From Squalus acanthias (taxonomy: Eukaryota), in NCBI GenBank assembly GCA_030390025.1, contig CM059431.1, forward strand, positions 100,442,001-100,506,000: DNA of 64,000 nucleotides, written 5' to 3'. The notes below the pieces were generated by a model that searched no databases, had not been told where the DNA came from, and saw only the letters and a program-made list of their open reading frames with translations. This document shows, in pieces, positions 10,158 to 30,915 of the stretch. The translations under genes were made by a program, and so were the position numbers. The stretch's first letter is position 1; every line of letters starts with the position of its first letter.

Positions 10158-12506
10158 TAGTGGCTCAGCGGACAGACAGCACTCTCGCCTCTGAGTCAGA
10201 AGGTAGTTGGTTCGAGCCCCACTCCAGAGACTTGAGCACAGAATCCAGGCTGACACTCCCAGCGCAGTACTGAGGGAGCGCCGCACTGTCGGAGGGGCGG
10301 TACTGAGGGAGCGCCGCACTGTCGGAGGGGCGGTACTGAGGGAGGGCCGCACTGTCGGAGGGGCGGTACTGAGGGAGGGCCGCACTGTCGGAGGGGCAGT
10401 ACTGAGGGAGTGCTGCACTGTCGGAGGAGCTGTACTGAGGGAGCGCCGCACTGTCGGAGGGGCGGTACTGAGGGAGGGCCGCACTGTCGGAGGGGCAGTA
10501 CTGAGGGAGCGCCGCACTGTCGGAGGGGCAGTACTGAGGGAGTGCTGCACTGTCGGAGGAGCTGTACTGAGGGAGCGCCGCACTGTCGGAGGGGCAGTAC
10601 TGAGGGAGCGCCGCACTGTCGGAGGGGCAGTACTGAGGGAGCGCCGCACTGTTGGAGGGGCGGTGCTGAGGGAGCGCCGCACTGTTGGAGGGGCTGTACT
10701 GAGGGAGCGCCGCACTGTCGGAGGGGCGGTACTGAGGGAGCGCCGCACTGTCGGAGGGGCGGTACTGAGGGAGCGCCACACTGTTGGAGGGGCGGTGCTG
10801 AGGGAGCGCCGCACTGTCGGAGGGGCGGTACTGAGGGAGCTCCGCACTGTCGGAGGGGCTGTACTGAGGGAGCGCCGCACTGTCGGAGGGGCGGTACTGA
10901 GGGAGCGCCGCACTGTTGGAGGGGCGGTGCTGAGGGAGCGCCGCACTGTTGGAGGGGCGGTGCTGAGGGAGCGCCGCACTGTCGGAGGGGCAGTACTGAG
11001 GGAGCGCCGCACTATCGGAGGGGCAGTACTGAGGAGCGCCAGTACTGAGGAGCGCCGCACTGTCGGAGGGGCGGTACTGAGGGAGCGCCGCACTGTCGGA
11101 GGGGCGGTACTGTGGGAGCGCCGCACTGTCGGAGGGGCAGTACTGAGGGAGTGCCGCACTGTCGGAGGGGCAGTACTGAGGGAGCGCCGCACTGTCGGAG
11201 GGGCAGTACTGAGGGAGCGCCGCACTATCGGAGGGGCAGTACTGAGGAGCGCCAGTACTGAGGAGCGCCGCACTGTCGGAGGGGCGGTACTGAGGGAGCG
11301 CCGCACTGTCGGAGGGGCGGTACTGTGGGAGCGCCGCACTGTCGGAGGGGCAGTACTGAGGGAGTGCCGCACTGTCGGAGGGGCAGTACTGAGGGAGCGC
11401 CACACTGTCGATGGGGCAGTACTGAGGGAGCGCCGCACTGTCGGAGGGGCGGTGCTGAGGGAGCGCCGCACTGTCGGAGGGGCGGTGCTGAGGGAGCGCC
11501 GCACTGTCGGAGGGGCGGTGCTGAGGGAGCGCCGCACTGTCGGAGGGGCGGTACTGAGGGAGTGCCGCACTGTCGGAGGGGCAGTACTGAGGGAGCGCCG
11601 CACTGTCGGAGGGTCAGTACTGAGGGAGCGCCGCACTGTCGGAGGGGCAGTACTGAGGGGAGCGCCGCACTGTCGATGGGGCAGTACTGAGGGAGCGCCG
11701 CACTGTCGGAGGGGCGGTGCTGAGGGAGCGCCGCACTGTCGGAGGGGCGGTGCTGAGGGAGCGCCGCACTGTCAGAGGGGCGGTGCTGAGGGAGTGCTGC
11801 ACTGTCAGAGGGGCGGTACTGAGGGAGCGCCGCACTGTCGGAGGGGCAGTACTGAGGGAGCGCCGCACTGTCGGAGGGGCAGTACTGAGGGAGCGCCGCA
11901 CTGTCAGAGGTGCAGTACTGAGGGAGTGCTGCACTGTCGGAGGTGCAGTACTGAGGGAGTGCTGCACTGTCGGAGGGGCAGTACTGAGGGAGTGCTGCAC
12001 TGTCGGAGGTGCAGTACTGAGGGAGTGCTGCACTGTCGGAGGGGCGGTACTGAGGGAGCGCCGTGCTGTCGGAGGGGCAGTACTGAGGGAGAGCTGTTCT
12101 GTCGAAGGGGCAGTACTGAGGGAGTGCTGCACTGTTGGAAGGGCAATACTGAGGGAGCGCTGCACTGTCGGAGTTGCAGTACTGAGGGAGTGCTGCACTG
12201 TCGGAGGTGCCATCTTTCGGATGAGACGTTAAACTGAGGTGCTCTCTCAGGTGGATGTAAAAGATCCTATGGCACTATTTCGAAGAAGAGCAGGGGAGTT
12301 ATGCCTGGTCTCCTAATCAACATCACAAAAACAGATTAGCTGATCATTATCCCATTGCTGCTTGTGAGAGCTTGCTGTGCGCAAATTGGCTGCCGCGTTC
12401 ACTACATTACAACAATGACTACACTTCAAAAAGTACTTAATTGGCTGTAAAGCACTTTGGGACGTCCAGTGGATGTGAAAGGCGCTGTAGAAATGCAAGT
12501 CTTTCT
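10158..12506 (+). mobile_element. tRNA-derived Deu-domain SINE (SacSINE1/AmnSINE1-like) carrying an expanded internal minisatellite
   Basis: tRNA head (TGGCTCAG..GGTTCGAGCCC) at 10160-10225, the array, then the normal SINE body and 3' tail at 12205-12506. Confidence 0.85.
10263..12208 (+). repeat. 33-bp minisatellite, ~59 units (GCAGTACTGAGGGAGCGCCGCACTGTCGGAGGG)
   Basis: Directly visible tandem array; produces the 11-aa periodic ORFs. Confidence 0.97.
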
Positions 12507-12796
12507 ATAGCTTAATTAGTTTGCGCATGTTTACAGATTTCTTTGTATCTTTTAAATTTTTGCCAAACTCTTTCCCCGTCCTTCAAACAATTTTCATTTT
12601 GATTGTCTTGTGCTTTTCCCTCTGTAAAATATTTTTTACCCCAGTGAGTCACATTGAATTTCCTCAACCATTCACCTTCTCTATTTTCTTTCTTTGACTA
12701 CCTTTATGGCCCCTTTAATTGGCTCATTTGGCCACTCTTTTTAAAAACAGTTTTCTACCCTTGCTTCCTCCAAGTCCTTGGTGCAGAAGGAAGTAA

Positions 12797-13200
12797 ACAA
12801 CAACAACTTGCATTTATATAGCGTATTTAACATAGTAAACCATCCCGAGGCGCTTCACAGGAGCGTTATTAAACAAAATGTGGCACCGAGCCACATGAGA
12901 TAGTAGGACAGGTGACCAAGAGCTGGGTCAAATAAGGAGAGTCTTAAAGGGCGAGAGAGGTAGAGAGGCGGAGAGGTTTAGGGAAGGGAATTGCAGAGCT
13001 TAGGGCCTTGGCAGCTGAAGACACGGCCACCAATGGTGGAATGATTGAAATCGGGGATGCGCAAGAGACTAGAATTGGAGGAGCGCAGAGATCTCGCGGG
13101 GGGGGGGGGTTGTAGGATGGAGGAGGTTACAGAGATAGGGAAGGGCGAGGCTATGCAGGGATTTGAAAACAAGAATGAGAATTTTCAAAATCGAGGCGTT
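12797..13200 (-). mobile_element. L2 LINE 3' fragment
   Basis: CAACAACTTGCATTTATATAGCG tail; RSLRSSNSSLL..TIGGRVFS in ORF 12978-13172. Confidence 0.85.
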
Positions 13201-13609
13201 GCAAAAGAATAGTAAACAGAAACAATTTATTTTAAAATATGTAAGCTATAAATCCTTGTGACTCCAATTTGTTAAAGCACATTATTTCCTGTTCAACGGT
13301 AGAGTTTATAACTAGCGGTACCAACAGACAGATCAAACATAGTGCTGTTCACTGTGGAGGCCGGGGAATTTTTCCCAAGAGCTTCGGTACAAAAACAGGC
13401 TCGTCAATTCACACTTTTTTTGTTTTGCACAAACGTGATATTTGACAGATTAGAATTATTGTACAGTGGATCAGTTTGGACCTCACTTCAACCAACTAGA
13501 GGTCGCGAGGGGTGAAAATGGACATGGGCGGGGGAGGGGCGGTGGGTAGAGGCGCCAAACAGGTGGAATCTCACGGGCACCCGTTTAGGCCCCACCTGAT
13601 ATTCGGCTC

Positions 13610-13990
13610 CATTAGGATTGGACGTATTCCTGGAGGTCTCATCACATGACCTCCAGCCTCTAACCGTCCCGCCCCCACGTTCCCGCTATTGGTCGCCCAA
13701 CACGTCCACCCTCGCGGTGCCCCGCCTTCCCCACGGCCAATTGGAAAGCCAACAGACTCTTCATTACCCGATTGGATGACTCTCGATGAACAGCCTTTTT
13801 TCGCCATGTCCAATATTTTTTTGTAACTAATAAAACAAAAGTGTTCAAAAAAAGTTTTTTTTTGTTAAAAACCCACTATTTTTTAATGCCCATCTGATTT
13901 TTCTCCCGGACTTTGCTGGCAGCAGTGGCCTGGAGATTCATCTTTGATTCCTGGAGACTCCAGGGCAATCCGGGAGGGTTGGCAACTCTA
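13610..13990. mobile_element. Partial hAT-like non-autonomous element
   Basis: Ends GGTTGGCAACTCTA, the reverse of a TAGGGTTGCCAAC-type TIR; other end not found. Confidence 0.45.
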
Positions 13991-14290
13991 GGGGTCACGG
14001 TCTCGGGATAAGGGGTCGGCCATTTAGGACTGAGATGAGGAGGAATTTCTTCACTCAGAGGGTTGTGAATCTTTGGAATTCTCTACCCCAGAGGGCTGTG
14101 GAGGCTCAGTCGTTGAGTATATTCAAGACAGAGATCAATAGATTTTTGGATACTAAGGGAATCAAGGGATATGGGGATAGTGCAGGAAAGTGGGGTTGAT
14201 CTAGAAGTTTAGCCATGATCTTATTGAATGGCGGAGCAGGCTCGAGGGACTGTCTGGCCGAGTCCTGCTCCTAATTCTTATGGTCTTATT
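13990..14290 (+). mobile_element. CR1 3' fragment
   Basis: GAGATGAGGAGGAATTTCTTCACTCAGAGGGTTGTGAATC plus CR1 tail. Confidence 0.9.
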
Positions 14291-14559
14291 AGGTTCCACT
14301 GACCTCAATAGAACTGAAAATGAGTCGTGTTGCAGAACGGGCAGCAAGTGCGATTTTGCCTGTTTTGCGTCTCTCCCCCCCACCCCGCTCCCCCCCACCC
14401 CACCCAAGTCCAATTTCGCCGCCCCACGCACCATAAACTTCAATGCAGCCTGGGATGTAGTTTCGTCATCTCGCAACCTGCTTTATTCCAGGTACACGGT
14501 AAACCCGCGCAACACAAAGAGCATTAAGCAGACCGATTCAGGCCAGAAATCAGTAGAGG

Positions 14560-14800
14560 ACAGAGGGGAAAGCTACCTCACTACCTACACATGCCGGCTC
14601 CCTTCGTAGCAAGGCTACGAAACTCAGTCGGAAGATCATGCATCATTTTCATATCACTCAGAATAACGCACCAACAGAGAAAACTCTGTATAGATTTAAC
14701 AGTTGTGCTGGAAAGGAGTGCGACACCTAATACTACTCATTCTGGCAGTGCCCTAAAATCGTCCCCTTCTGGTCTGCGACCAACAATTGTAATCAAACAA
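14560..14800 (+). mobile_element. Degenerate L1/Tx1-clade ORF2 C-terminal (Cys-rich) fragment
   Basis: Frame from 14632 reads KIMHHFHIT...*YYSFWQCPKIVPFWS, resembling KILHR.Y.TP...H.FW.CP.I..FW. Confidence 0.65.
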
Positions 14801-15009
14801 TGTGCTGGACCTTCCTCTAAAGCCTGAACTCTTGACCTGTTTCGGGGCATTTTTCAGTTGACAATACTAATGATCCAAATGTGAGATGACTGGCTGACAC
14901 ACTGCTACATACGGCACATCAGTGTGTTTTAATGAAATGGAAAGGTTTAAATCCCCCCAACTATATTCTAATGAGCAGAGACAGATTTAACCCCTTCACT
15001 GAAAAAAAT

Positions 15010-15366
15010 CGTTCCGTGGCCTCGCTCCCTCCCTATCTCTGTAACCTTCCTCCAGCCCTACAACCCTCCGAGATCTCTCCGCGCCTCCAATTCTGGCCTC
15101 TTGCGCATCCCCAGTTTTCTTCGCGCCTCCGTTGGCGGCCGTGCCTTCAGCTGCCTGGGCCCCGAGCTCTGGAATTCCCTCCCTAAACCTCTCCGCCTCT
15201 CCTCCTTTAAGACACTCCTTAAAAACCAACTCTTTGACCAAGCTTTTGGTGACCTGCCCTAATATCTCCTTATGCGGCTCGGTGTCAAATTGATAATCGC
15301 TCCTGTGAAGCGCCTTGGGACGTTTTACTACGTTAAAGGCGCTGTATAAATGCAAGTTGTTGTTGT
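15010..15366 (+). mobile_element. L2 LINE 3' fragment
   Basis: GGCGGCCGTGCCTTCAGC..CTCTGGAATTCCCTCCC..AAAGGCGCTGTATAAATGCAAGTTGTTG. Confidence 0.88.
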
Positions 15367-15544
15367 AGACAGGTCTGAATTAAAATGAATGCAGAATGAT
15401 TAACATAGTAGGATATATATTTATTCTAAAGATCAGGAAGAACGCACGGTCCACTGACCGCAATGCAACAGGCATGAATTCTTCTTGTGGGCATGGAGTA
15501 ATCTCCACCAACTTACCAGATTTATCAAACACTGCAACGTTTGG

Positions 15545-15941
15545 TTCTATTACACTGCCGGAAAAATAACAGCGAGTTTAATGTGTAAATAACCCGGCAA
15601 CTTGCGGCGAGGAAGAGATTCCCCGTGAGTTGCGAGTCGCCACAAGTTGCCGGACGATTCGCGCCGCTCCGCCGTTAGCCTCATGAAAATGGGAGCTCGC
15701 CCTCAACCCTTCCGTGAATGTTGCTGCTTTTTGCGCCGTAAAGACAAATGAAACCCACCGCGGAAAGTTGGCCCCCGTCCTTCACCGAGGTCCCAGATGC
15801 CCCGTTACCCTCGCCGCGCCGTTATTGGCTCACACGCCCAGCAATTTGAAGGCGTAAAGTGAATAGCAGCTGAAGGGTGAGGAATAAAATCCAACTCACG
15901 CCGCTCACCACGAGGTGCCCAGCTCCAGCTATTTCTGGGCC
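15545..15941. mobile_element. Internally deleted relative of the MITE at 17415-18186
   Basis: Shares GGTCCCAGATGCCCCGTT..GCTGAAGGGTGAGG and ends ATTTCTGGGCCC. Confidence 0.6.
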
Positions 15942-16039
15942 CTTCTGTTTGACTAGGCCACGTGCAAGGCTTCTTCCCAGCCCCTTCTAATTTTACTTGC
16001 AAGTCAAAAAATACTGAAACAATAAAGACAGATCCAACA

Positions 16040-16448
16040 TTGCCTGCTCGTGCAGTGAACGCTGATTCGCAGAATTCCTTCAAGCGAGAGCTGGACCTGT
16101 TTCTGGCTGGGGCGGAGGTCGCCTCGTACAATGGCCAATCAGGGATAGAGCGGCCCTCCTGGACTAGTTTTCGATTGCCTAATGTGTCCCACATTACAAT
16201 AGTGACAACACTTACAAAAAGTCCCTCATTGGCTGTAAAGTGCTTTTGGGTGTCCTGCGGCACTATATAAATGCAAGTCTTTCTTTCTAACTTCATTTAT
16301 TATCTGGATTTTCGCCTCTCCCAGGATATTACATGGTTTATGGGTGGGAGGAAAGTGTATATATTGTGATACACAAGGTATCGCAACTATGGGACAGGCT
16401 GGGTGGACCAGAGGGTCTTTTCCTGTCCATCATTTTTTGTATGTTCTT
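16040..16448 (+). mobile_element. Divergent CR1-clade 3' end with long UTR, interrupted by a Deu-SINE tail (~16188-16290)
   Basis: SFKRELDLFLAG at the ORF2 end; UTR shared with 58375-58695. Confidence 0.55.
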
Positions 16449-16519
16449 ATTACCAGAATAGCCATTTGGAACCATTTTTCTATTTAGAACTAGACCATCC
16501 ATTTAGATTTTGTTAAATA

Positions 16520-16912
16520 TTCATTCACGGGATGTGGGCGTCGCTGACAAGGTCGGCATTTATTGCCCATCCCTAGTTGCCCTTGAGAAGGTGGTGGTGA
16601 GCTGCCTTCTTGAACCGCTGCAGTCCGTGTGGTGAAGGTACTCCCACAGTGCTGTTAGGGAGGGAGTTCCAGGATTTTGACCCAGCGACGATGAAGGAAC
16701 GGCCGATATATTTCCAAGTCGGGATGGTGTGAGACTTAGAGGGGAACTTGGAGGTGGTGATGTTCCCATGCACCTGCTGCCCTTGTCCTTCCAGGTGGCA
16801 GAGGTCGCAGGTTTGGGAGGTGCTGTCGAAGAAGCCTTGGCGAGTTGCTGTAGTGCATCCTGTAGATGGTACACACTGCAGCCACGGTGTGCCGGTGGTG
16901 GAGGGGGTGGAT
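16520..16912 (-). mobile_element. CR1-clade LINE (RSg-1-like family) 3' end
   Basis: ORF 16573-17217 C-terminus SFIVAGSKSWNSLP..GLQRFKKAAHHHLL; tail GGGCAATAAATGC..GCCCACATCCC. Confidence 0.8.
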
Positions 16913-17414
16913 GAGAAAGCAGGAAGCGAGATTGGATTTACAGAAGTTTTATTTTTCTCACGAGTGTGATCGTCCTGCGGAACAGCATTCCGACAGTGGT
17001 AGCGAGGGCTGAGCACTTGCAGTCCCTCAAAAAGGTCTTTGATGCATTTTTGGAAAACCAAGAGAAGGAAGATAAGATTTGGGGTCAGGTTAGGGACTAC
17101 TGCGGCAGGTCTAATTTCCTTTGAGAGGAATATTTGACAAATGTTTCCTGAATTAGCATCCAGTCTGGGTTTTTTTATGCCTATTAGAGGAGGTCGCGGA
17201 GGGAAAGATAGGGACATGGGGTGAATGGGGCAAGTGCAAATGGGCCAAGTTGCTTCTCGACGTTCTGAGTATATATCAATGCTATCAAAATTGTCTTTCT
17301 CAGATGTTTGTTGAGCCTTCTAAAGTCCATTGGAAGGAAAAAAAGCTTCTCTCAGCCTTTCAATGAATAAATGAATGTAGGAACCAGAAGAGAAAATGCA
17401 GCGGAATATACATC

Positions 17415-18186
17415 GGGCTGGATCTTGCTGGAACAGTAACGGTGTGTCAATGACGTACACTGTTATTAATGTGCAAATCAGCCAGTAAGTTCAGGGGATG
17501 AGGAGATACGGCGTGAATTGCGAATCTCCAGAACTTGTTGGTCGATTTACGTCGCTCATCTGTTTGCTTTTCACAAACGGTATCTCGCCCTCAGCCTCCT
17601 CCTTATTTTTTAAAATTTGCTGGATTTGCACATTAATTGCCCATTAAACTCGCCGCAGAAAGTTAGGGCTCATAATAACAGCATAAGTTACCTTTTTAAC
17701 GGCGAGATAATTGTTAATGCAATGCCAAACAACCTCTCTGGCCCAGACCCCAGAAATTGAACAATTTAAACTGTTCAATCTCATTCCTGCAGATAGTAAA
17801 TTGTTGTTAGAGATTTTTAAAAATGTCAAATTTTTAATTTTTACATTTTAGTCTTACTTTTCCTTTCGTCTCTTTTTTTCTCTCTCTTGATCCGACCTTT
17901 CTTTCCCTCTCTTTATTTATTTCTCTACCTGATTTGACTCTAATTCACCCTATTTCCTTCTCCGTCGTTCCTCTGTTTTTTTCTCAATCCTTTAATCTCA
18001 TGGGTTAAGGAGATAGACTGTTGGTCCCGTCGTTCACTGGGGTCCCAGATGCCCCGTTGCCCTTGCCGCCCCGTTACCAGCTCGCACTTCCAGCAAGTGC
18101 AAAACAATTTTGAGCTGAAGGGTGAGGGAAAAAGTCGAACTAACGGGGATCGCCACGAGATGCCCCACTCCAGCAAGCTCTGGGCC
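17415..18186. mobile_element. MITE-like element (~770 bp)
   Basis: Inverted termini GGGCTGGATCTTGCTGGA / TCCAGCAAGCTCTGGGCC. Confidence 0.65.
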
Positions 18187-18381
18187 AATGTCTTTGGAAG
18201 GAATGAACTTGAGGGTTTGAATGGCCTTTTCTTGTTGCATGCTTTCTTGCTTAGCAGTGGTTCAAACTATGTTACAATTGAAAGTGATAAGTGGTGTGAA
18301 ACCATCACATTTCATGCTAGCTGAGGCAGTTAGTGCACCCATACTCCTTCACATGAATTAGCCTTGCTCTATCTTCACTAC

Positions 18382-18446
18382 GATGTGGAGATGCCGGTGT
18401 TGGACTGGGGTGGACAAATGTGAGAAGTCGCACGACTTCGCACATT
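18382..18446 (-). mobile_element. Penelope-type 3'-end micro-insertion with 12-bp TSD
   Basis: GATGTGGAGATGCCGGTGTTGGACTGGGGTGGACAAA matches 35652 onward. TSD TATCTTCACTAC at 18370-18381 and 18447-18458. Confidence 0.75.
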
Positions 18447-18634
18447 TATCTTCACTACAGCTAATGATATAGACTGGTTTCACTTGTGATGAGCAATGTG
18501 GGTAAACTCTGCCTCCATTAGAATGAAATTCCCAATCTGCAGGGGTAATGGAAGAGACGCTGATAATACTCCATATTCAGAAGACAGAGGTAACGAGTCG
18601 TAACAACATTCTAGAGTGTTCTGGCCCACATTAT

Positions 18635-19050
18635 TCCTGGAGTTTAGATGAATCAGAGGTGATTTCATTGAAATATATAAAATTCTTAAGGGGATTGACA
18701 GGGTAGATGCTGAGAGGATGTTTCCCCTGGCTGGGGAGTCTAGAACTAGGGGGCATAGTCTCAGGATAAGGGGTCGGCCATTTAGGACTGAGATGAGGAG
18801 AAATTTCTTCACTCAGAGGGTTGTGAATCTTTGGAATTCTCTACCCCAGAGGACTGTGGAGGCTCAGTCATTGAGTATATTCAAGGCAGAGATCGATAGA
18901 TTTTTGGACACTAAGGGAATCAAGGGATATGGAGATCGGGCAGGAAAGTGGAGTTGAGGTATTAGATCAGCCATGATTTTATCGAATGGTGGAGCAGGTT
19001 TGAAGGGCCGAATGGCCGACTCCTGCTCCTATTTCTTATGTTCTTATGTT
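18635..19050 (+). mobile_element. CR1 3' fragment
   Basis: ORF 18718-18957 plus TATGTTCT tail. Confidence 0.9.
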
Positions 19051-19544
19051 TAACCACTACCTGTACCACAATGCAGGCCAACTGCACCTTTCACAAGCAT
19101 TCGTACAGAAAGTGGTACGGCTGAATGTGGTTTTATTGCAACCTGTGCTGCCTTGCACAAACAGTCCTTTACTTTGGTTCAGACTATAAGATATGTGTTT
19201 TGTGATACACTCCCAGCTTATCAATATATAGAAAATTTAAACAAAAATTATACAGCCACAGACTACACCAGGAAAATTGTAATCAAATCTGGCCGGACCT
19301 GGGAACCAGAAAGCTGTCACAATTAACAACTTGCATTTATAATAGGATTACATCGGATATACGGCACAGACACAGGCCATTCGGCCCAACCAGTCCATGC
19401 CGGCGTTTATGCTCCACTCGAGCCTCCTCCTGTCTTTTCTCATCTAACTCTATCAGCATAACCCTCTATTCCCTTCTCCCTCATATGCTTATCTAGCCTC
19501 CCCATTAATAGTGACATTAATGTAGAAAAACATCCCGACCCAAC

Positions 19545-20222: not shown

Positions 20223-21564
20223 TAGATTGTTCCGGTTGCTCCAGTGGAACGACATACGCACGGCTATTATGCATTCATTTTAACTGAAGCAAGTCCATTA
20301 TTTATAGCGGGTTAATTTACTACAGTGTCATGTTTCCTGGCTTCTGCTTGTAGACTTTTCACATGACCACTGAGCTATTTTTTTGTGAAGGAAACAGCCA
20401 ACTGTACAGCATTGAAATGCCTAGCCAAATGGCAAGGTTCCTTCCCCCACCACCACCAGCTCCCCCCCAAAGAAAATTATAAAACGCAGGAAGACAGAAC
20501 ATTTATTATAGACTAGCAGCCCCCTATTCATCCAAAGCCGAGCAGCTGTACAGTGTGAAGTGGGTTCCTCTGATGGACAGGCACAATGAGTACTCGGAGG
20601 CAGTTGGCTCCACCGCTTACTTTAACACAGATAGCTGACACTGACTTGAGGCTCAATCTTAATTCAAGAGGTTGATGGTAAAAAGGAAGGAATTAACTAA
20701 ATCCTTTTCAACTGCACCAACGTGTTTTTGTAATTAAAGCCGCACAATTAACACTGGCAATGAGCGCAGGTCACCGTGGCACAGATTATGTTCAATGCTC
20801 AAAGCTTCCAGCATAAAACAGCTGCAGGAAGAAAAAGAGCACATCCTTTATCAACTTGGCCTCGCTCCCAGCCTAGTCCTTGTGGAACGCTGAATTTTGC
20901 TTCACACATTTTGTGCTCTTCTGCTAACCTCACTTTGCACAAAAGGTATCCTATAGGTTTCGCCGTTCTCTCAAAATTGAAGTTAAATTGGGTTGTGTAC
21001 TAAGGGAACTACAAATCATGCAAATATAATTTTCCTTGTCAAAGCACTCGTGTGCATTGATGTTCTTCCAGTTAGGTTTGTGCAGCGGAGATGGGCACTG
21101 TGACCAATCCAACATTTCATTTTAGCCTCAGTACTTGCACATTTGCCCCTAATACAAAAGGGGATTTTATTTTATTTTTACATCGCTTCACTGTGGGCTG
21201 TGTAAGAATGTTCAGTTCGAATGACTGTTTTATAACTAGACAATGCTGCATTTTAGAAATTGCTTTGCTTTGTAGCAAAACAAAAAATAAATTTACATTA
21301 ACGTTTCACCACAAGATCCTTTTGCAAATATTAAATTTCACTGAACCACTAAAAAATATAATGACTTCCTCTGATAATTGCTGGGTTTATAATTGCCGGT
21401 GTAAATTCTTTACAACAACCATCTATGAGTAAAAACCTGTTAACCTCGCTTCCAAAACAACACATAATCTGTCATAACTGAATGCTCAGTGGAATCTGAA
21501 AGTTACTGAACTGTCGAGACGATGGAAGTACGACACCAAGGCAACTGGTCAAGGGTGTATAATA

Positions 21565-21823
21565 TAAGAAATAGGAGCAGGAGTCGGCCAATCAGCCCCT
21601 CGAGCCTGCTCCGCCATTCAATAAGATCATGGCTGATCTTCTACCTCATCTCCACCTTCACACACTATCCCCATATCCCTTCGTTCCCTTAGTATCCAAA
21701 AATCTATCGATCTCAGTCTTGAATATACTCAACGACTGAGCCTCCACAGCCCTCTGGGGTAGGGAATTCCAAAGATTCACCACCCTCTGAGTGAAGAAAT
21801 CCCTCCTCGTCTCAGTCCTAAAT
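21565..21823 (-). mobile_element. CR1 3' fragment
   Basis: RRDFFTQRVVNLWNSLPQRAVEA in ORF 21658-21927. Confidence 0.88.
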
Positions 21824-22002
21824 GTTGTTTTGGAAGCACAGTTAACGCGGGATATCAAGTTAGATGTCAGCCGCAAAACACTTATTTCTGATTTGATATT
21901 CCGCCTCAAGCCGGCGTTGAAACACAATCTGCATGACTCTGTGCAGCTTCAAACTCCACTTCTTCAACCCAAAGCTCTTTCAAAGGATTGTGCTCTTGTA
22001 TT

Positions 22003-22505
22003 CAGTCCAGAGAAGGTTCACGAGGTTGATTCCGGAGATGAAGGGGTTGTCTTATGAAGAAAGGTTGAGCAGGTTGGACCTATACTCATTGGAGTTTAGA
22101 AGAATGAGAGGTGATCTTATTGAAACATATAAGATTCTGAAGGGGCTTGACAGGGTACATGCAGAGAGGATGTTTCCCCTCGTGGGGGAATCTAGAACTA
22201 TGGGGCATAATTTCAGAATAAGGGGTCGCCATTTAAATCAGAAACGAGGAGGAATTTCTTCTCTCAGAGGGTCGTGAATCTTTGGAATTCTCTTCCCCAG
22301 AGAGCTGTGGAGGCTGGGTCATTGAATATATTTAAGGTGGAGATAGACAGATTTTTGAATGGTAAGAGAGTCAAGGGTTATGGGGAGCGGGCAGGAAAGT
22401 GGAGTTGAGGCCAAGATCAGATCAGCCATGATCTTACTGAATGGCGGAGCAGGCTCGAGGGGCCAAATGACGACCTACTGCTCCTACATCTTATGTTCTT
22501 ATGTA
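22003..22505 (+). mobile_element. CR1 3' fragment
   Basis: VQRRFTRLIPEMKGLSYEERL in ORF 21933-22277, plus tail. Confidence 0.9.
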
Positions 22506-22671
22506 TGAAACCAGATGCACTGCTCGAATATTGCAATTTTGCTCCTGGTGCATTGCCATCTTGGAACAGGCCAAATTGGTGTGGTGAAGTTACCTGGAAG
22601 AGACAGGTTCATACTGCGGCAGATGGGCACTGATTATAGTATAGAAACTCCCTTTAAAAAAAAAACAGGTA

Positions 22672-23142
22672 AGAAAGAAAGAAAGACTTGCATTTCTACA
22701 GCGCCTTTCACGACCACCGGACATCTCAAAGTGCTTTACAGCCAATGAAGTACTTTTGAAGTGTAGTCACTGTTGTAATGTGGGAAACGCGGCAGCCAAT
22801 TTGCGCACAGCAAGCTCCCACAAACAGCAATGTGACAATGACCAGATCATCTGTTTTTGTTATGTTGGTTGAGGGATAAATATTGGCCCAGGACACCGGG
22901 GATAACTCTCCTGCTCTTCTTCAAAATAGTGCCATGGGATCTTTTACGTCCACCTGAGAGAGCAGACGGGGCCTCGGTTTAACGTCTCATCCGAAAGACA
23001 GCACCTCCGACAATGCAGCATTCCCTCAGCACTGCACTGGGAGTGTCAGCCTAGCTTTTTGTGCTCAAGTCTCTGGAGTGGGACTTGAGCCCACAACCTT
23101 CTGACTCAGAGGCGAGTGCGCTACCCACTGAGCCACTGGCTG
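22672..23142 (-). mobile_element. Full-length Deu-domain tRNA-SINE
   Basis: Reverse complement of 23815-24260, with head, body and tail. Confidence 0.88.
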
Positions 23143-23814
23143 AAGCTAGTGCTTTTAAAGTTTAAAAAACCAATGCTGGTGGCTCATTGTAGCACTACTG
23201 TAGGGCTGATTATCTTGTCAGCTCTCTTCATTCATGAGAGTTGGAAGGGCAGTTCTCGCCACACGTGTGTTCGAATGTCCACATATGGAGCTCTGCTCTC
23301 CCCAACTTCACGACAAGAGCCAGCAGTGAAAACGCGACACCCGCCCCCCCCCTTGCATGGCTGCGATAATAGAGGCTGATGCTGCGTCCCTTGGTGCATT
23401 TTGAAAAGTGACATTGATGCACTCCTTCTCATCTCTATCGCTCATTTCACAGCCAAGGCCATTTGTGAGATTTGCTGCGACTGCAATTTGGTGCTTCAAC
23501 ACCCGCTCCCCCTCACCCCCACACTGCAATTCGCCGTCCAGCTAATCAAAACAATTCGAGTACTATGATGGCAGCATTTGCTCAGCATTCATTGCGCAGA
23601 ATAAAAGTGCTCAACTAAACTACAAGGCCTTTAGCTGGGCAGCAAGAGAACGAAAGAGCAAGTGGGAATTATTGGTGCTGTGCGCATAGTTTTTGTCCCC
23701 ATTGCTGGAGAGGGTTGAAGGCATGGCTGCAATGTTCTGCTGGATATCAGTTCAATTTCTATAAACTATCTTGTTCAAATTACACTTTTCCTCTGCTTGT
23801 AGTTTGTTAGAGGC

Positions 23815-24261
23815 TATCAGCTGTGGCTCAGTGGGCAGCACCCTCGCCTCTGAGTCAGAAGGTTGTGGGTTCAAGTCCCACTCCAGGGACTTGAGCACAA
23901 AAAACTAGGCTGACACTCCCAGTGCAGTACTGAGGGAGCGCCGCACTGTCGGAGGTGCCATCTTTCAGATGAGACGTTAAACCAGGTGGACGTAAAAGAT
24001 CCGATGGCACTATTTCGAAGAAGAGCAGGGGAGTTATCCCCGGTGTCCTGCCCAATATTTATCCCTCAACCAACATAACAAAAACAGATTATCTGGTCAT
24101 TATCACATTGCTGTTTGTGGGAGCTTGCTGTGCGCAAATTGGCTGCCGCGTTTCCCACATTACAACAGTGACTCCACTTCAAATAGAATTTCATTGGCTG
24201 TAAAGCGCTTTGAGACGTCTGGTGGTCGTGAAAGGCGCTATATAAATGCAAGTCTTTCTTT
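23815..24261 (+). mobile_element. Full-length Deu-domain tRNA-SINE (single 33-bp unit)
   Basis: A box TGGCTCAGTGG, B box GGTTCAAGTCC, body GTAAAAGATCC..GGCACTATTTCGAAGAAGAGCAGGGG, tail GAAAGGCGCTATATAAATGCAAGTCTTTC. Confidence 0.9.
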
Positions 24262-24649
24262 ATTAAATCCCCCCCACTGTCCTATTTATCCTCTCTCTCA
24301 GTATATATGGGTGCCAGTACAGAAGGTGAAGGCTGCCCTGTTTGCACAGCCTCCTCCTGCCCCAGAATTCATAGCCATGGCTGCAAAGCAGATGACCCGA
24401 CAATGGAATCTGCTGCTGCATCCACCCGCAGTCTTCTCCTCTGGAAACCTCCTCGACAACCCTCGCCGAGCCCCTTTCACCACAACAGCACAGTGTGGAT
24501 TGGGGTCATTCTCCATCAAATCATTGTTGCTGTCCTCGTAACTACCCAGTACAATGCAGCTGCGGGACTGCTCCGGGGACCTGCAGGTTTCCTGTAACCT
24601 CCTGTTTCACCCACTCCTCTCTTAGTCAACTATCTGCCTATACGGTTTT

Positions 24650-25016
24650 TATTTAATTCATGGGATGAGGGCGTCGCTGGCAAGGCCAGCATTTGTTGCC
24701 CATCCCTAATTGCCCTTGAGTGGCTCGCTGGGCCATTTCAGAGGGCAGTTAAGAGTCAACCACATTGCTGTGGGTCTGGAGTCACATATAGGCCAGACCG
24801 GGTAAGGACGGCAGATTTCCTTCCCTAAAGGGACAATAGTGAACCAGATGGGTTTTTCTGACAATCTGGTAGTTTCATGGTCACCATTATTGATACCAGC
24901 TTTTTATTCCAGATTTATTTAACTGAATTTAAATTCTCCAGTTGCCATGGTGGGATTTGAACTGGATCATTAGTCCAGGCCTCTGGATTACTAGTCCAGT
25001 AACATTACCACTATGC
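24650..25016 (-). mobile_element. Meta-domain tRNA-SINE (SlmI/SacSINE2-like)
   Basis: Reverse complement of 40001-40560; tail shared with the RSg-1-like LINE. Confidence 0.7.
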
Positions 25017-25097
25017 AACCTTGAACTTTGGATCATGTCCTCTGAAATGCACTGTCTGAAAAGAGATTCAATAGCAACTTTCAAAAGGGGAATTGGT

Positions 25098-25487
25098 GAA
25101 TTCTCATCCTTGTTTTCAAATCCCTCTATGGCCTTGCCCCTCCCTATCTCTGTTACCTCCTTCAGCTCTACAACGCTCCTAGATCTCTGCGCCCCTCCAA
25201 TTCTGGCCTCTTGTGCATCCCCGATCTTAATCGCTCCACTATTGGCGGCTATGCCTTTAGCTGCCTAGGCCTTAAGCTCTGGAGTTCCCTCCCTAAACCT
25301 CTCCGCCTCTCTCTCCTCCTTTAAGACACTCCTTAAAACCTACCTCTTCGACCAAGCTTTTGGTCACCTGTCCTAATATCTCCTTACATGGCCATGTCTC
25401 AAATTCTGTCTTGATAACGCTCCTGTGAAGTGCCTTGGGACATTTTACTACGTTAAAGGCGCTATATAAATGCAAGTTGTTGTTGCC
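25098..25487 (+). mobile_element. L2 LINE 3' fragment
   Basis: Same sequence as 15010-15366. Confidence 0.88.
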
Positions 25488-25549
25488 TGAGCTCCAAAGC
25501 AGTCCTATGTCTGGCTAGCTAAGTTAATAAGTGATTTTTACCACTCCTA

Positions 25550-26346
25550 GGGGGGAATTTGGCCAGCCCTGGGGAGGCAGGTTTGGAGGCGGGACTGTCG
25601 GGAAAATGGCAGAAACTGGGAGCGGGTACCGAACCCACTCCCAACCCCCCTCCGTGCCATCTTCCCGGGAGGCGGGTCACCGACTCGCGCAGGGACCTGT
25701 CTCCTCGAGGCGGGAAGGGGATTACAGCCACTTAACAGGTAGTTAACAGGCAGTTAAGAGGCTTATCCCCATTTTACCAACACAAGTGCGGGCTTCCCGA
25801 CGTCGGGAAACCCCGCCAGGGGTCAGCAAGCAGTGGGTCTGCAGGGGTGAGAGGGGTCGAAATGTGCGCTGTGGAGGTGAGTGATGGGTGCAAGTGTGGA
25901 GAGGTAAGTATGGGAGGTGAGTGAAAAGTGTAGGCTTCAACCGTTGGGGATCCAGAGGCTCCTCATCTCCACGGCAGAGATGACAGAATGGCTACTGCAT
26001 TCTCCGATGCAACAGCCATCTTATTTCTGCTCAGGAAAGAGGTTTGGTGAGTCTTGAGTACAAGGGCTCACCAAAGAACAGAGAATGTCAGTGTTTGACA
26101 GTTTCTCAAAGCTGTCAAATGATGAAAATTCATCTGTCAAAAATTTTTGACAGATGAAACGTCATACGCTGACGTTCTCTGTAACCGGCTTTCCCTTAAT
26201 TGGCCTGCTAAGCCCGCAGGGTGGGCTTAACAAGGTCAATCAAGGAAAAATAGCGTGGGCTGGCCAAACGTTGTTGGGGGCGGGACTGAAACCCGACAAC
26301 CAGCAGTCCCGCCCCCAATGCGTCCCCATTGAAAAAATCCAGCCCC
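25550..26346. mobile_element. GC-rich MITE-like element
   Basis: Begins GGGGGAATTT, ends AAAATCCAGCCC, with GGCGGGACTG/CAGTCCCGCC inverted subterminal motif. Confidence 0.45.
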
Positions 26347-26348
26347 TA

Positions 26349-26799
26349 GTGTCAGCCGTGGCTCGGTGGGTAGCACTCTTGCCTGAGTCAGAAGTTCGTG
26401 GGTTCAAGTCCCACTCCAGAGACCTGAGCACCAAATCCAGGCTGACACTTCAGTGCAGTACTGAGGTGCCGTCTTTCGGGTGAGACGTTAAACCGAGGCC
26501 CCGACTGCTATCTCAGGTAGATGTAAAAGATCTCACGGCACTATTTTGAAGAAGAGCAGGGGAGTTCTCCCCGATGTCCAGGGGCCAATATTTATCCCTC
26601 AATAAACATCACTAAAACAGATTATCTGGTCATTATCACATTGGTGTTTGTGGGAGCTTGCTGTGTGCAATTTTGGCTGCCGTGTTACCTACCTTACAAC
26701 AGTGACCATACTTCAAAAAAGTACTTCATTGGCTGTAAAACGCTGTAAAGGGACGTCCTGAGGATGGGAAAGGCGCTAAATAAATGCAAGTTCCTTTCT
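26349..26799 (+). mobile_element. Deu-domain tRNA-SINE with most of the 33-bp unit deleted
   Basis: CAGTGCAGTACTGAG joined directly to GTGCCGTC at ~26451-26473. Confidence 0.88.
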
Positions 26800-27357
26800 G
26801 ACTCGTCTATCGTTACCTGGTTCCTCCTTCTTGAACAGATTGTTACGTTCAATTCTCGGGCACAATTTCCATACTCAAGGATGCTTGAAAGATTATGGTC
26901 TGAGCCTCTATTAAATCCCCCCTGATTTCCCGTAACTTTCTATGATTCTGTCCTTTCATTACCACTACCATAATAGTCTATGAAAATTGAAGCAAAGTAC
27001 GCATTTAGCATCTCTGCCATGCCTTCGTCTTCCATGAGAAGATTCCTTCTAATCAGCCTATCCTCTCTGTAACTTTTTGTGTTTATAAAATCCTTTATTA
27101 TTTCCCTTTGCTATCTACCAGTCTTTCTTCATACTCCTCTAAGCCTTTGTGATCTCCTCTCTTCTCCTCCATGTTCGGCTTAATTTTCATTTGTATTATT
27201 GACTCTAGAATTATCTTATGTTTCCAAGTCTAATTTTAATGTATCTATTCATCCAGGTAACTTTAATTGTAATTCCATTTTCACCTTTAAATAAGTTCCA
27301 CTTTTAGATGAAGGTATTTGTGCTTACAGTAACATTATGTTATTTTCAAACTTTTTT

Positions 27358-27942
27358 TTTTCGTTCCTGGGATGTGGGCGTGGCTGGCAAGGCCAGCATT
27401 TATTGCCCATCCCTAGTTGCCCTTGAGAAGGTGGTGGTGAGCCGCCTTCTTGAACCGCTGCAGTCTGTGCGGTGAAGGTACTCCCACAGTGCTGTTAGGG
27501 AGGAAGTTACAGGATTTTGACCCAGCGACAATGAAGGATCAGCGATATACTTCTAAGTCAGGATGGTGTGTGACTTGGAGGGGAACTTGGAGGTGATGGT
27601 GTTCCCATGCGCCTGCTGCCCTTGTCCTTCTAGGTGGAAGAGGTCGCGGGTTTGGGAGGTGCTGTCGAAGAAGCCTTGGCAAGTTGCTGCAGTGCATCTT
27701 GTAGATGGTGCACACTGCAGCCACGGTGCGCCGGTGGTGGAGGGAGTGAATGTTTAAGGTGGTGGATGGGGTGCCTAACAAGCGGGTTGCTTTGTCCTGG
27801 ATGGTGTCGAGCTTCTTGAGTGTTGTTGGAGCTGCACTCATCCAGGCAAGTGGAGAGTATTCCATCACACTCCTTACTTGTGCCTTGTAGATGGTGGAAA
27901 GGCTTTGGGGAGTCAGGAGGTGAGACACAGAATACCCAGCCT
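27358..27942 (-). mobile_element. CR1-clade (RSg-1-like) LINE 3' fragment
   Basis: ORF 27539-27928 IYKAQVRSVMEYSPLAW..LDTIQDKA..SLHHRRTVAA. Confidence 0.88.
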
Positions 27943-28209
27943 ATATAACACTCCTCTTCTAAAGAACATCCCAGAGTGCTTTTGCGAGGAGAGAGTTGGA
28001 CATTGAACAAGAAGTAAAAGGAATTTGGGGGGGAAAGGGGAAGGCGGATAAGATGGTCAAAAAAAGGGGAAGGCTCTATGAGTTTGAAAGGAGAGGTGGC
28101 AAAGTGAAGTGGTTTTGGAAAGAATTCCAGGGGTTTAATAATTGAAACATCGACCTCTGATGATGCAAGTGGAGGAGGCAGGGCACAATAGGTTGGAGGG
28201 GGCTGCATA

Positions 28210-28582
28210 TAGTGACACCGCAAATCCAGGCCAGAATGGAGATGATTGGGTAATTCCCCCGTCAATCACGCCCGGAGACCGCACTGGGATTAATTTTATG
28301 CATGCAATTTGTATTATGTAACTATCCTCCACTCACTGCATATTGCTGGAGAAATCACCCTGTCCTTATCTGGAAATATAATCACCCTGCTGCGGTTATG
28401 AGTTCTGTTTGCTGTAGTTCATAGAGACTCTTTTTAAATAGACTCTGTAGACTGTTTGCTGTGGTGCGCGGTTTAAACAGACTCTGTTTGCTGTAAAATA
28501 GACTGCTGACTGTGAGCCCTGCCGTAAATCCCGCCCCACCTCCAACTCATTGGCTGACGCGGTGGTGTCAATAGACACTCTG
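28210..28582 (+). repeat. Unclassified ~380-bp repeat, copy 2
   Basis: Aligns by eye with 1715-2646 and 34922-35305. Confidence 0.75.
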
Positions 28583-29236
28583 GGTTAATGCAGATTGTAA
28601 CCACAAAGCAGCAGAATAACTGAAGGGATTAGAGGAAGCTACAGCAGGCCAAGCACAAATTAGAAAAGCACGTTGCTAAAAGTTCGGTTCTCAATGCTAA
28701 TTGTTTATTAAATGAGACTGCATGAAAGTTTGTGGGCTCAGGTCATTGCGACATGCAAAAAGGTCAAAGTTAATGTATTCACAGGGACTATTAATAGACT
28801 TAAGTATCGTAATCAAGGGCCGACTCCAAGCTCTATTCACGTGCAATGGGATAAGATGCCTGCTCGTTATGTTACTCAGACCTATTTGTGAACAACTTGT
28901 AGATACGTTTGCATGTTTAAGCGGCAAACTGGTGTGTTTTAACCCAACTTATAATAAATTAGCTAAATTATACAGAAATATAATTATAATTGAGCATTGA
29001 TTCTTACCTATTATAAATAAACTAGTTAAATATCGAATAACTGTTGTGGTGGGGCACAGAAATGTAAATGTAGTGAGTGCTAAGTTAAGCCAAGTGAAAT
29101 CTTATGGTCCAATGAAAAAGAAAATACTGTAAAGATTAATAGTTTGGCTCTGCACGATTCAACATCGAATGCACAGCAAGAACACTCATCTAAGACAGTC
29201 AGTGTAACAAATGGAAAATATTGCCATAACGCTTAC

Positions 29237-29377
29237 CTCATCTCCAACAGCAACAGCTACAGTGACAACTGACCCAGGCATTGGTGCTTTCAGAATGTTA
29301 CTCGTGTCCTCTGGGACTTTCTCAAGCATGTGCTTATTCAGTTCTGCTGCTAGCTTGGTCAGTACTTGGACTTTGTA
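29237..29377 (-). CDS. PCCA: PCCA coding exon immediately upstream of the EAMKM exon
   Basis: Minus-strand 141-nt exon with a polypyrimidine tract plus AG (ctttctttatttttag) and a GTAAGC donor. It translates [47 protein letters not shown], matching recalled human [46 protein letters not shown]. It splices in frame (phase 0) to 1225-1302. Confidence 0.95.
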
Positions 29378-29549
29378 CTAAAAATAAAGAAAGAACATAT
29401 AAATTTCTGAAATCAGCTATGCAATTAAAATGACCAAGCTAAATATCTTCAATCGCTTTGAAAGCTACTTGTGTTCGGTCTTTTGCCAAGACAGGTTCAC
29501 TCTAAACATGTGAAGTTAACCCTACTAACTACTGTCCCATAAACAAGTA

Positions 29550-30915
29550 CCAGCCTTGGCTCAGTGGGTAGCACTCTCGCCTCTCGTGGGTTCAAGCCCC
29601 ACTCCAGAGACTCGAGCACAAAATCTAGGCGGACACTCCAGTGCAGTACTGAGGGAGTGCTGCACTGTCGGGGGGTCAGTACTGAGGGAGCGCCGCACTG
29701 TCGGTGGGGCAGTACTGAGGGAGTGCTGCACTGTCGGGGGGTCAGTACTGAGGGAGCGCTGCACTGTCGGAGGGGCAGTACTGAGGGAGCGCCGCACTGT
29801 CGGAGGGGCAGTACTGAGGGAGTGCTGCACTGTCGGAGGGGCAGTACTCAGGGAGTGCTGCACTGTCGGAGGGGCAGTACTGATGGAGTGCCGCACTGTC
29901 GGAGGGGCAGTACTGAGGGAGCGCCGCACTGTCGGAGGGGCAGCACTGAGGGAGTGCTGCACTGTCGGAGGGGCAGCACTGAGGGAGTGCTGCACTGTCG
30001 GAGGGGCAGTACTGAGGGAGTGCTGCACTGTCAGAGGGGCAGTACTGAGGGAGCGCCGCACTGTCGGAGGGGCAGCACTGAGGGAGTGGTGCACTGTCGG
30101 AGGGGCAGTACTGAGGGAGCGCCGCACTGTCGGAGGGGCAGCACTGAGGGAGTGCTGCACTGTCGGAGGGGCAGTACTCAGGGAGGGCTGCACTGTCAGA
30201 GGGGCAGCACTGAGGACTGCTGCACTGTCGGAGGGGCAGTACTCAGGGAGTGCTGCACTGTCGGAGGGGCAGTACTGATGGAGTGCCGCACTGTCGGAGG
30301 GGCAGTACTGAGGGAGCGCCGCACTGTCGGAGGGGCAGCACTGAGGGAGTGCTGCACTGTCGGAGGGGCAGCACTGAGGGAGTGCTGCACTGTCGGAGGG
30401 GCAGTACTGAGGGAGTGCTGCACTGTCAGAGGGGCAGTACTGAGGGAGCGCCGCACTGTCGGAGGGGCAGCACTGAGGGAGTGCTGCACTGTCGGAGGGG
30501 CAGCACTGAGGGAGTGCTGCACTGTCAGAGGGGCAGTACTGAGGGAGCGCCGCACTGTCGGAGGGGCAGCACTGAGGGAGTGCTGCACTGTCGGAGGGGC
30601 AGCACTGAGGGAGTGCTGCACTGTCAGAGGTGCCGTCTTTCGGGTTGGATGTAAAAGATCCCATGGCACTATTTTGAAAAAGAACAGGGGAGTTCTCCCC
30701 AGTGTCCTGGCCAATATTTATCCCTCAAACACCACCTAAAACAGATTATCTGGTCATTATCACATTGCTGTTTGTGGGAGCTTGCTGTGCGCAAATTGGC
30801 TGCTGTGTTTCCTACATTACAACAGTGACTGCACTTCAAAATGTACTTCATTGGCTGCAAAGCACTTTGAGATGTCCTGAGGTTGTGAAAGGCGCTGTAT
30901 AAATGCATGTCTTTA
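29550..30915 (+). mobile_element. Deu-domain SINE with a second internal minisatellite expansion
   Basis: tRNA head 29550-29605, array, then SINE body and tail. Confidence 0.85.
29641..30632 (+). repeat. 33-bp minisatellite, ~30 units
   Basis: Tandem GCAGTACTGAGGGAGTGCTGCACTGTCGGAGGG. Confidence 0.97.

Follow-up and report, generated by a model that had tools for sequence, protein, structure and literature searches.

Sequence changes shared by two 33-bp minisatellite arrays in Deu-domain SINE hosts of different subfamilies in Squalus acanthias

How do two copies of one SINE come to carry the same 33-bp minisatellite, and are the two arrays of independent or of common origin? The question is raised by a stretch of 64,000 nucleotides of the Squalus acanthias genome (GenBank assembly GCA_030390025.1, contig CM059431.1, positions 100,442,001 to 100,506,000 of the forward strand), hereafter the window. 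A preliminary description had noted here two Deu-domain SINE copies expanded to about 59 and about 30 units, and TRF on the 64-kb window bears this out: array A extends over 10264-12207 (period 33, 59.0 copies, 91% matches) and array B over 29643-30630 (period 33, 30.0 copies, 91% matches). An 18-mer spanning the unit junction occurs 41 times in the window and not once in 100 shuffles. Parsed into units, array A consists of 58 full and two half units (10263-12207; one false split in its unit table, at 12125, was corrected manually) and array B of 30 units (29642-30630), both on the forward strand. All whole-array comparisons rest on these two arrays (n=2), both within the window.

In the alignment, each array is bounded by the SINE head on one side and by the tail on the other; the unit occupies the linker that joins the tRNA-type head to the Deu domain, directly 5' of the latter. 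Copy A (forward strand) comprises head and linker of subfamily 1 (10160-10262), the tRNA-type head containing an A-box-like (about 10161-10171) and a B-box-like motif (about 10210-10218), and, beyond the array, the Deu domain (from the right-hand GTGC), body and LINE-like tail (12207-12509). Copy B (forward strand) comprises head and linker of subfamily 2 (29550-29641) and, beyond its array, Deu domain, body and tail (30630-30914). Heads and tails had been described as intact; they do flank both arrays, but the sequence missing from head and Deu domain amounts to 13 and 37 nt in copy B and to 8 and 20 nt in copy A. Inside the arrays, ordered blocks are duplicated (213 nt from 10963 in A; 395 nt from 29823 in B), which shows that the arrays grew in the genome after insertion and not during reverse transcription alone.

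The assignment of the family to the Deu-domain SINEs is confirmed: over its first 33 nt, the AmnSINE1 Deu row agrees with the local consensus at 32 positions, and the next block of the Deu alignment is also clearly matched (both by eye; alignment in the supplement of PMC7245038). The last 55 nt of the SINE are common to a second family of 5'-cut fragments resembling a LINE end, to which neither Pfam nor a protein search gave a name. Two motifs visible in the head of the local consensus are A-box-like and B-box-like, a likeness that we presume from the general box consensus. Searches with ARAGORN and Rfam returned no match for the tRNA head, as is usual for decayed tRNA heads. Target-site duplications were sought in seven copies, none convincingly found. 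Copy A contains no run of four T across its 2.35 kb, so a Pol III transcript of the whole array would be possible.

Thirteen SINE copies in the window span the unit site: two are expanded (2/13, 95% interval 2-45%), nine hold a single uninterrupted unit, one is deleted and one is split, and none has 2 to 29 units. By alignment and diagnostic sites, the single-unit copies of subfamily 1 lie at about 22670-23149, about 43504-43906 (5'-truncated) and about 52378-52855, all on the reverse strand, and at 61909-62376 (forward, full-length); those of subfamily 2 at 32380-32745 (reverse, 3' part absent), 53735-54150 (forward) and about 55349-55597 (reverse, 3' half absent). The copy at 63266-63671 (forward) has mixed diagnostic letters. 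The ninth, at 23815-24261 (forward; unit at 23923-23955), combines the native T with C at unit positions 16 and 19 (C16/C19), the letters of the array type, according to alignment and unit comparison. In agreement with the preliminary description, which had seen one unit in other copies and most of it lost in another, the subfamily-2 copy at 26346-26799 (forward), nearest to B in alignment and tree, has a 20-nt unit deletion between two GAGG repeats. Finally, sequence and diagnostic sites identify a subfamily-1 copy at about 57354-58353 (reverse), in which about 535 nt of another repeat family (57694-58228) have inserted into the single unit and split it.

The subfamilies are told apart by five linked diagnostic sites. 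Host A has subfamily-1 letters at three of the five and private letters at the other two, host B subfamily-2 letters at four. A comparison of expanded and unexpanded copies had been proposed earlier as a check on independence; run on the 13 copies of the window, it places the expanded hosts in different subfamilies, although an AU test does not reject a clade of A and B (p 0.107). The hosts differ by 13.4%, neither being closer to the other than to unexpanded copies, and host B groups with the unexpanded copy at 26346 in the tree (support 88/82). Three derived backbone letters are common to A and B, each of them present in further copies. Measured against the local consensus, the backbones diverge by 7.8 and 8.0%, and both are old. 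Given the difference in subfamily and the 13.4% divergence between the hosts, it is unlikely that both expanded SINEs descend from one recent expanded master.

The interiors of the arrays, however, agree. A slip between the GTGC microrepeats would leave a T at the unit junction; the prevailing junction has a G. Array A has 50 GG, 4 TG, 2 AG, 2 GC and 1 GT junctions (n=59), and array B 27 GG, 2 GT and no TG (n=29). Accordingly, position 0 of the unit is G in 47 of 54 (A) and 28 of 29 (B) full 33-nt units, and T in all eight single 33-nt units; the native-type TG units of array A are confined to its 3' end (11911-12207). The arrays had been said to have different dominant variants. This is not the case: the commonest unit of A is identical in 33 of 33 letters to the joint commonest of B, with seven copies in each, and a second unit is also common to both (three copies in A, one in B). 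The shared top unit carries C16/C19; the first and last units of array B have T16/T19, yet C16/C19 occurs in 8 of its 29 units. Outside seven variable sites, units of A and B differ by 3.5%, compared with 3.3 and 3.4% within the arrays and 8.2% among single units; over all sites the A-B distance is 10.5% versus 8.4 and 7.6% within the arrays. The shared G junction and the identical C16/C19 top unit suggest that the two arrays, as they now stand, are not independent, and the shared changes would point to a common source. Nevertheless, all shared changes run from A/T to G/C, so that GC-biased conversion could yield them in parallel; the rough chance of such an overlap among 13 A/T sites is about 0.06 to 0.12. 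Since the single copy at 23815 has C16/C19 too, this unit may derive from a SINE subfamily.

The first unit of B and its native 5' flank together form an imperfect 12-bp hairpin (29639-29667, forward); it folds as described before, with -10.8 kcal/mol as DNA (z -2.8 for 29630-29680; z below -2 in two of five copies folded). It is the most stable spot of the SINE in two of three copies scanned, the exception being 22670, and the RNA fold of the whole SINE is no better than shuffles (z -0.17). In the shared top unit the hairpin is nearly gone (about -1.7 to -1.9 versus -6.5 kcal/mol for the native unit), and the private common variants G3 and G6 of A and C5 of B each mend one hairpin pair (-5.9, -8.6 and -9.0 kcal/mol). 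The GTGC direct repeats do bracket the unit 33 nt apart, as noted earlier, but they are commonplace: one SINE copy contains 54 direct repeats of at least 4 nt at 20-60 nt spacing, so that the GTGC pair is not special by itself. From the proposal that hairpin and microhomology together drive slippage, we retain the slip, whose junctions are present in array A (4 of 59) and in contig joints, and not the hairpin as the engine of array growth, given that the top unit folds weakest. The junction G (G0) can pair with C27 across the unit junction, and long-loop G-tract patterns number 24 and 13 in the arrays and zero in the T-junction block. Mean G4Hunter is only about 0.8, and a canonical short-loop G-quadruplex was discarded, no pattern having loops of 12 or less.

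Public contigs of four runs from three samples (X1 and X4 from one sample, X5, X6) were searched with the single-unit copy at 23815, itself C16/C19, as bait; they gave 2991 loose ends and 1452 joints, and junctions were counted from those among the matches listed. Loose ends at the 3' edge of the unit run into a G-junction unit in at least 200 contigs of X1, 214 of X4 and 115 of X6; for X5, the G junction is absent among the loose ends listed. Run by run, at least 6, 9, 18 and 1 contigs contain T-junction joints, and among the joints listed all four runs include some that go back 33 nt with four letters fitting both sides. In all four runs the depth of the unit bin exceeds that of its two neighbours by a factor of 3 to 16, contig depth not being equal to copy number. 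C at position 16 accounts for 69, 69, 95 and 72% of run depth with the C16/C19 bait, as against one of eight single units in the window. Based on the same G junction and the unit excess, the 33-bp family looks genome-wide. X6 shows no difference in 151 nt of unique flank and may therefore not be an independent species. In unit excess, a four-fold gap separates X1/X4 from X5; it is not taken as a sign of differing array length, because library bias can produce it. Patterns of unit DNA had no matches in viral contigs, metagenome contigs or prokaryote genomes. A protein search with the translated array gave two matches, both unrelated repeats on inspection. A wider search gave 222 matches to E 0.001, and a pattern scan of the 150 listed picked six; among the matches listed, four translations (P0037, P0079, P0025, P0112) read as diverged versions of the unit, with GG, GT and probably GA junctions, all G-initial.

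Our preferred explanation, which we hold tentatively and at somewhat less than even chances, is that the array was born by microhomology slippage and that one derived array lineage then spread among SINE copies by ectopic conversion. A slip from GTGC to GTGC around the hairpin would have doubled the 33-bp unit and left T junctions, of which relics are seen. One array lineage would then have acquired the junction G and the C16/C19 unit. Ectopic gene conversion or repair by template switching would have carried this lineage into SINE copies already in place, with homology provided by the head (100 nt) and the tail (300 nt); the donor may be DNA or the cDNA of an array-bearing transcript. The recipient would retain the letters of its subfamily and in many cases the native units at the array ends. 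Each array would subsequently turn over locally by block duplication, a pattern seen in both, while private variants may mend the hairpin via fold-back templated repair or GC-biased conversion. This reading is suggested by the discrepancy between hosts that differ in subfamily and by 13.4% and interiors that agree in junction and shared units; that T junctions remain only at the 3' end of array A also counts for it. Against it we count the AU result, the three shared backbone letters, the A/T-to-G/C bias and the C16/C19 letters of 23815. No end of a conversion tract has been mapped, likewise a point against it. In an extended form, which we consider unlikely, the array would be a selfish SINE sub-element homing into the same site of old copies by ectopic or cDNA-mediated conversion, with young related arrays in old unrelated hosts at thousands of loci. 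A host function for the arrays is not proposed.

Alternatively, the GTGC slip could have doubled the unit in each copy separately, and identical changes could then have recurred through GC-biased conversion and fold-back repair, or because only junction-G arrays grow long; the junction G would add a G4-run to every unit and allow another small hairpin to form over the junction. Such convergence is a serious contender, though we judge it rather doubtful. It accords with hosts of two subfamilies, with T-junction relics in array A and T-junction joints in all four runs, with an unstable site elsewhere (the deletion in 26346, the insertion in 57354), with the G0-C27 pairing and the G-tract excess of the arrays, and with G-initial junctions in all diverged translations; independent origin from flanking short repeats is also the published model for Alu and B1 minisatellites, to judge from the available part of PMC6947457. 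It requires, however, that A and B each acquired an identical transversion along with two linked transitions, so that their top units became identical, and must accommodate the lack of T junctions in B (0/29), the weakest hairpin in the shared top unit, the low G4Hunter mean with no short loops, and the frequency of 4-nt microrepeats in the SINE.

Distinctly unlikely, in our estimate, is dispersal from array-bearing masters: sources with at least two G-junction units would have been retrotransposed, whether in each of the two subfamilies or with heads and tails swapped afterwards in mosaic fashion, and the inserted arrays would then have grown in place. The SVA elements (SINE-VNTR-Alu) of hominids contain a VNTR in every copy, which travels with the master. 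Like SVA, the dogfish family combines a GC-rich VNTR-type array with a non-autonomous retroelement; unlike SVA, 11 of 13 copies are without an array and the expanded hosts fall into different subfamilies, so that the family is not SVA-like. Masters would account for the common interior with no need of conversion, a Pol III stop run is absent from copy A, and dispersal of a minisatellite by its host element is an accepted route (PMC6947457, available part; SVA is named in passing in the portion of PMC8327921 at hand). Yet the backbones are old and of different subfamilies, each with single-unit members, copies of 2-29 units are missing among the 13, array A has native T junctions at its 3' end, and none of the seven copies inspected offers a convincing target-site duplication by which to date it. 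An assembly artefact, with false expansions or mis-joined copies of one repeat, is hardly credible: both arrays are known here from the assembly alone, but each has private variants and ordered block duplications, both are short enough for long reads, and tandem unit junctions recur in contigs of four runs and three samples.

SINE-derived minisatellites are already known. The mouse has a VNTR family, (GGCAGA)n, that derives from B1 (Bois et al. 1998); in Alu there are the minisatellites of Jurka and Gentles (2006), both works cited via PMC6947457, PMC9659126 and PMC3389668, and of Ahmed and Liang (2012, PMC3389668), where multilocus clusters number 185 of 5,932. The dogfish arrays resemble them in expansion in place inside SINE copies with short direct repeats at the flanks (the Haber and Louis model) and differ in SINE superfamily and taxon; moreover, that model has flanks of 5-10 nt compared with four (GTGC) here, and the prevailing junction letter is not the one that the flanking repeats would give. 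Their unit falls within the range of 10-100 nt, is homologous to a segment of a transposable element and is amplified in place inside it at more than one locus, which makes them multilocus TE-derived minisatellites. In squamates, sSat1-3 are SINE-derived satellites (Vassetzky et al. 2023, PMC10702118), in which subvariants alternate and copy number differs between orthologous loci. There too, multiple loci bear tandem arrays of an internal tRNA-SINE segment, with units similar within and between them, and at least four middle monomers are demanded (59 and 30 here). Units of sSat measure about 70-290 nt, mostly keep one SINE end and show a subtelomeric bias, whereas the dogfish unit has 33 nt and both arrays are intronic and keep both SINE ends, the latter being uncommon according to that paper; its available portion contains no test of differing ancestry for host backbones and array interiors. 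By description only, the host family is like the SacSINE1-type Deu-SINEs of cartilaginous fishes, described by Luchetti et al. (2017, PMC5499810), with a tRNA-type head, a Deu domain, a LINE-like tail and a length of about 460 nt; in whale shark, copies reach 463 bp. The main text of that paper, as available, has neither "tandem" nor a minisatellite. The literature searched reports no shark SINE-derived minisatellite and contains neither the unit nor the SINE body letters, and the parts of the zebra shark preprint and the spiny dogfish paper at hand do not mention one.

How minisatellites are born and how like arrays spread over many loci is still debated, known models explaining 6% of TE-derived cases (PMC3389668, in part). 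The SINE host of each array here can be dated and bears subfamily markers, and, if the family is genome-wide, this would offer thousands of natural replicates that would separate local birth, master transport and conversion between loci. From their sequence, the arrays are candidate length markers for sharks; they are also a trap for gene prediction, array B having open frames of 116-398 codons on both strands.

Both arrays lie antisense within PCCA. A 141-nt exon at 29237-29377 (reverse strand) matches propionyl-CoA carboxylase alpha chains (E about 4e-14), and the next exon lies at 1225-1302 (reverse strand; limits from AG and GT signals), which we take to contain the biotin-attachment motif. 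A simple scan of the PCCA strand found no cryptic splice sites in either array, and no effect of the arrays on PCCA is indicated. Array A lies in the 28-kb intron after the 141-nt exon and array B in the intron before it, where the distance to the acceptor (29377/29378, reverse strand), previously given as about 170-260 bp, is 172 nt for SINE B and 264 nt for the array itself.

Two SINE copies of the window, A (10160-12509) and B (29550-30914), contain real arrays of an internal 33-bp unit, each flanked by the head and tail of a ~460-nt SINE. As the preliminary description had proposed, Tandem Repeats Finder reports a period of 33 for both, with 59.0 copies in A (10264-12207) and 30.0 in B (29643-30630); an 18-mer across the unit junction occurs 41 times in the window versus 0 times in 100 shuffles. 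Seventeen SINE copies or fragments are alignable, and 13 of them reach across the unit. Two carry the expansions, nine possess a single whole unit, and copy 26346 has lost most of it through a 20-nt deletion between two GAGG repeats, all in line with that description. In copy 57354, the single unit is interrupted; the insert (57694-58228), a ~535-nt fragment of another repeat family with further copies at 1886, 4451, 18632, 22003, 46271, 51462 and elsewhere, lies in the right hairpin arm. In A a 213-nt block and in B a 395-nt block is exactly duplicated, which shows that the arrays grew in the chromosome and not only during reverse transcription. Two 16-nt half units in A (11022-11037, 11235-11250), copied within the 213-nt block, mark the order of events there.

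The Deu domain alignment printed in supplement file 1 of PMC7245038 includes AmnSINE1, whose row, compared by eye with the local consensus, agrees at 32 of the 33 initial positions. The domain starts exactly at the right-hand GTGC; therefore, the unit is the linker that joins the tRNA-type head to the Deu domain. Directly 3' of the unit, at alignment columns ~170-210 and over a second small inverted repeat, both expanded copies as well as 23815 and 32380 have Deu deletions of 8 to 37 nt, four of 13 copies in all. In structure and length the SINE resembles SacSINE1-type elements of cartilaginous fishes, as described in PMC5499810, and suggests a shark-type source for the window. Its final 55 nt are common to a second family of 5'-cut fragments, for which Pfam and protein searches yielded no name. 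These ~400-nt fragments (12796-13202, 15006-15373, 25099-25485, 33451-33840, 49542-49910, 59048-59462) end in (GTT)n, several with nearly identical start points, and probably represent the partner LINE's 3' end. A 285-codon open frame at 46938-47795 (+) with a weak RVT_1 match (E 0.024, below the cut-off) is likely a LINE remnant. The window also contains a two-copy 47-bp tandem repeat (50847-50944) and self-inverted stretches (39938-40327, 40507-40586).

Five linked sites separate two SINE subfamilies. Copy A has subfamily 1 letters at three sites and private letters at the other two; copy B has subfamily 2 letters at four of five. Outside the unit they differ by 13.4% (range of all 78 pairs, 6.3-20.9%), and in a tree of 13 rows, with the four 3' fragments omitted, B groups with the unexpanded 26346 (88/82). 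Since the hosts are of different subfamilies, the single clade of expanded copies that would speak against repeated seeding is not what we found; the hosts appear not to form one clade, although a tree constrained to A+B is not rejected (AU p 0.107).

The array interiors tell a different story from their hosts. After removal of one false split, the GAGG-TG-CAG junction, which slippage from one GTGC repeat to the other must produce, is present at 4 of 59 junctions in A, confined to the 3' end, and at none of 29 in B; GG prevails in both (50/59 and 27/29, with GT at 2/29 in B), and all eight single 33-nt units have T at the junction position. One and the same unit ranks first in A and joint first in B, with seven copies in each, and carries C16 and C19, both missing from B's own first and last units. 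A second identical unit occurs three times in A and once in B. Excluding seven variable sites, units differ by 3.5% between A and B, 3.3% within A, 3.4% within B and 8.2% among single units, a gap that is not decisive alone because arrays seeded well after insertion could produce it too. Judged by their units, the arrays appear not to be independent, contrary to the earlier view of different dominant variants. Among single units, only 23923-23955 carries the array-type C16/C19, perhaps as the product of array collapse or of conversion by an array.

The T-type relics support array birth through a GTGC slip, which would duplicate the unit and leave such junctions behind. We tentatively favor spread by ectopic conversion, in which an existing array lineage would enter resident SINE copies; a shared interior in unrelated hosts is what this would leave. 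Separate births followed by parallel change suit the divergent hosts and sit less easily with identical units in both arrays; we consider them somewhat less likely. Transport by array-bearing masters, compatible with the unrejected A+B tree and at odds with the subfamily letters, seems a little less likely again. As four consecutive T are absent from copy A and occur once in copy B, in the tail, an RNA step is possible under conversion or masters. An assembly artefact is highly improbable, given junction-crossing contigs in public runs.

B's native first unit folds into the hairpin drawn before. Within the arrays only 8 bp of it are left by the G junction, and the C16/C19 unit common to both is predicted to be nearly hairpin-free (-1.7 and -1.9 versus -6.5 kcal/mol in native units). 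Four-base microrepeats are frequent in the SINE (54 in one copy), so GTGC by itself is insufficient to explain the site. Apart from CpG decay, three private variants are common: array A has G3 and G6, array B has C5. Each rebuilds one hairpin pair (-5.9, -8.6, -9.0), and like the shared changes all three run from A/T to G/C. Fold-back templated repair mends hairpin pairs, and GC-biased conversion drives A/T to G/C; we infer that the variants are as expected under either. Pairing of G0 with C27 would allow a small hairpin spanning the junction, and G0 yields one four-G run per unit; no short-loop quadruplex pattern was found from these runs.

Both arrays lie in adjacent introns of PCCA, antisense to the gene, whose minus-strand exons are at 29377-29237 (propionyl-CoA carboxylase alpha chains, E ~4e-14) and ~1302-1225. 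Array B is indeed close to a splice acceptor (264 nt); in a simple scan of the PCCA strand, neither array showed splice signals.

SINE-derived tandem repeats are already known from squamate sSat (PMC10702118), which likewise shows between-locus likeness of units, and from mouse B1 and human Alu minisatellites (PMC6947457, PMC3389668, PMC9659126). In the mostly open-access literature searched, we found neither a shark SINE-derived 33-bp family, including in the searched passages of two shark genome papers, nor a host-versus-array ancestry test for such repeats.

Contigs of four public runs from three samples (X1 and X4 share one) were aligned to the single-unit copy 23815. Unit-bin depth exceeds that of the two neighboring bins 3.1-3.6-fold (X1), 3.0-3.6-fold (X4), 14-16-fold (X5) and 5.5-6.1-fold (X6), with two Deu/body bins equal to or above it in X1 and X4. 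C at unit position 16 accounts for 69, 69, 95 and 72% of depth versus one of eight single units in the window, the bait itself carrying C16/C19. Loose ends at the unit's 3' edge run into a G-junction unit in at least 200 (X1), 214 (X4) and 115 (X6) contigs; in X5, this continuation is absent among the six rows listed per run. T-type joints occur in at least 6, 9, 18 and 1 contigs, respectively. X6, labelled as another organism, shows 0 differences to the unique flank over 151 nt. The excess suggests, rather than measures, a large genome-wide family, since depth is not copy number, the bait has C16/C19 and the contig counts come from a minority of the rows. Four predicted proteins among the matches listed resemble diverged arrays with G-type junctions. 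Within the aligned region (23593-24582), joints from the SINE 3' end (24261) back to its 5' end (23817) occur in at least 71 (X1), 73 (X4) and 47 (X5) contigs; whole-SINE head-to-tail dimers seem common in the genome.
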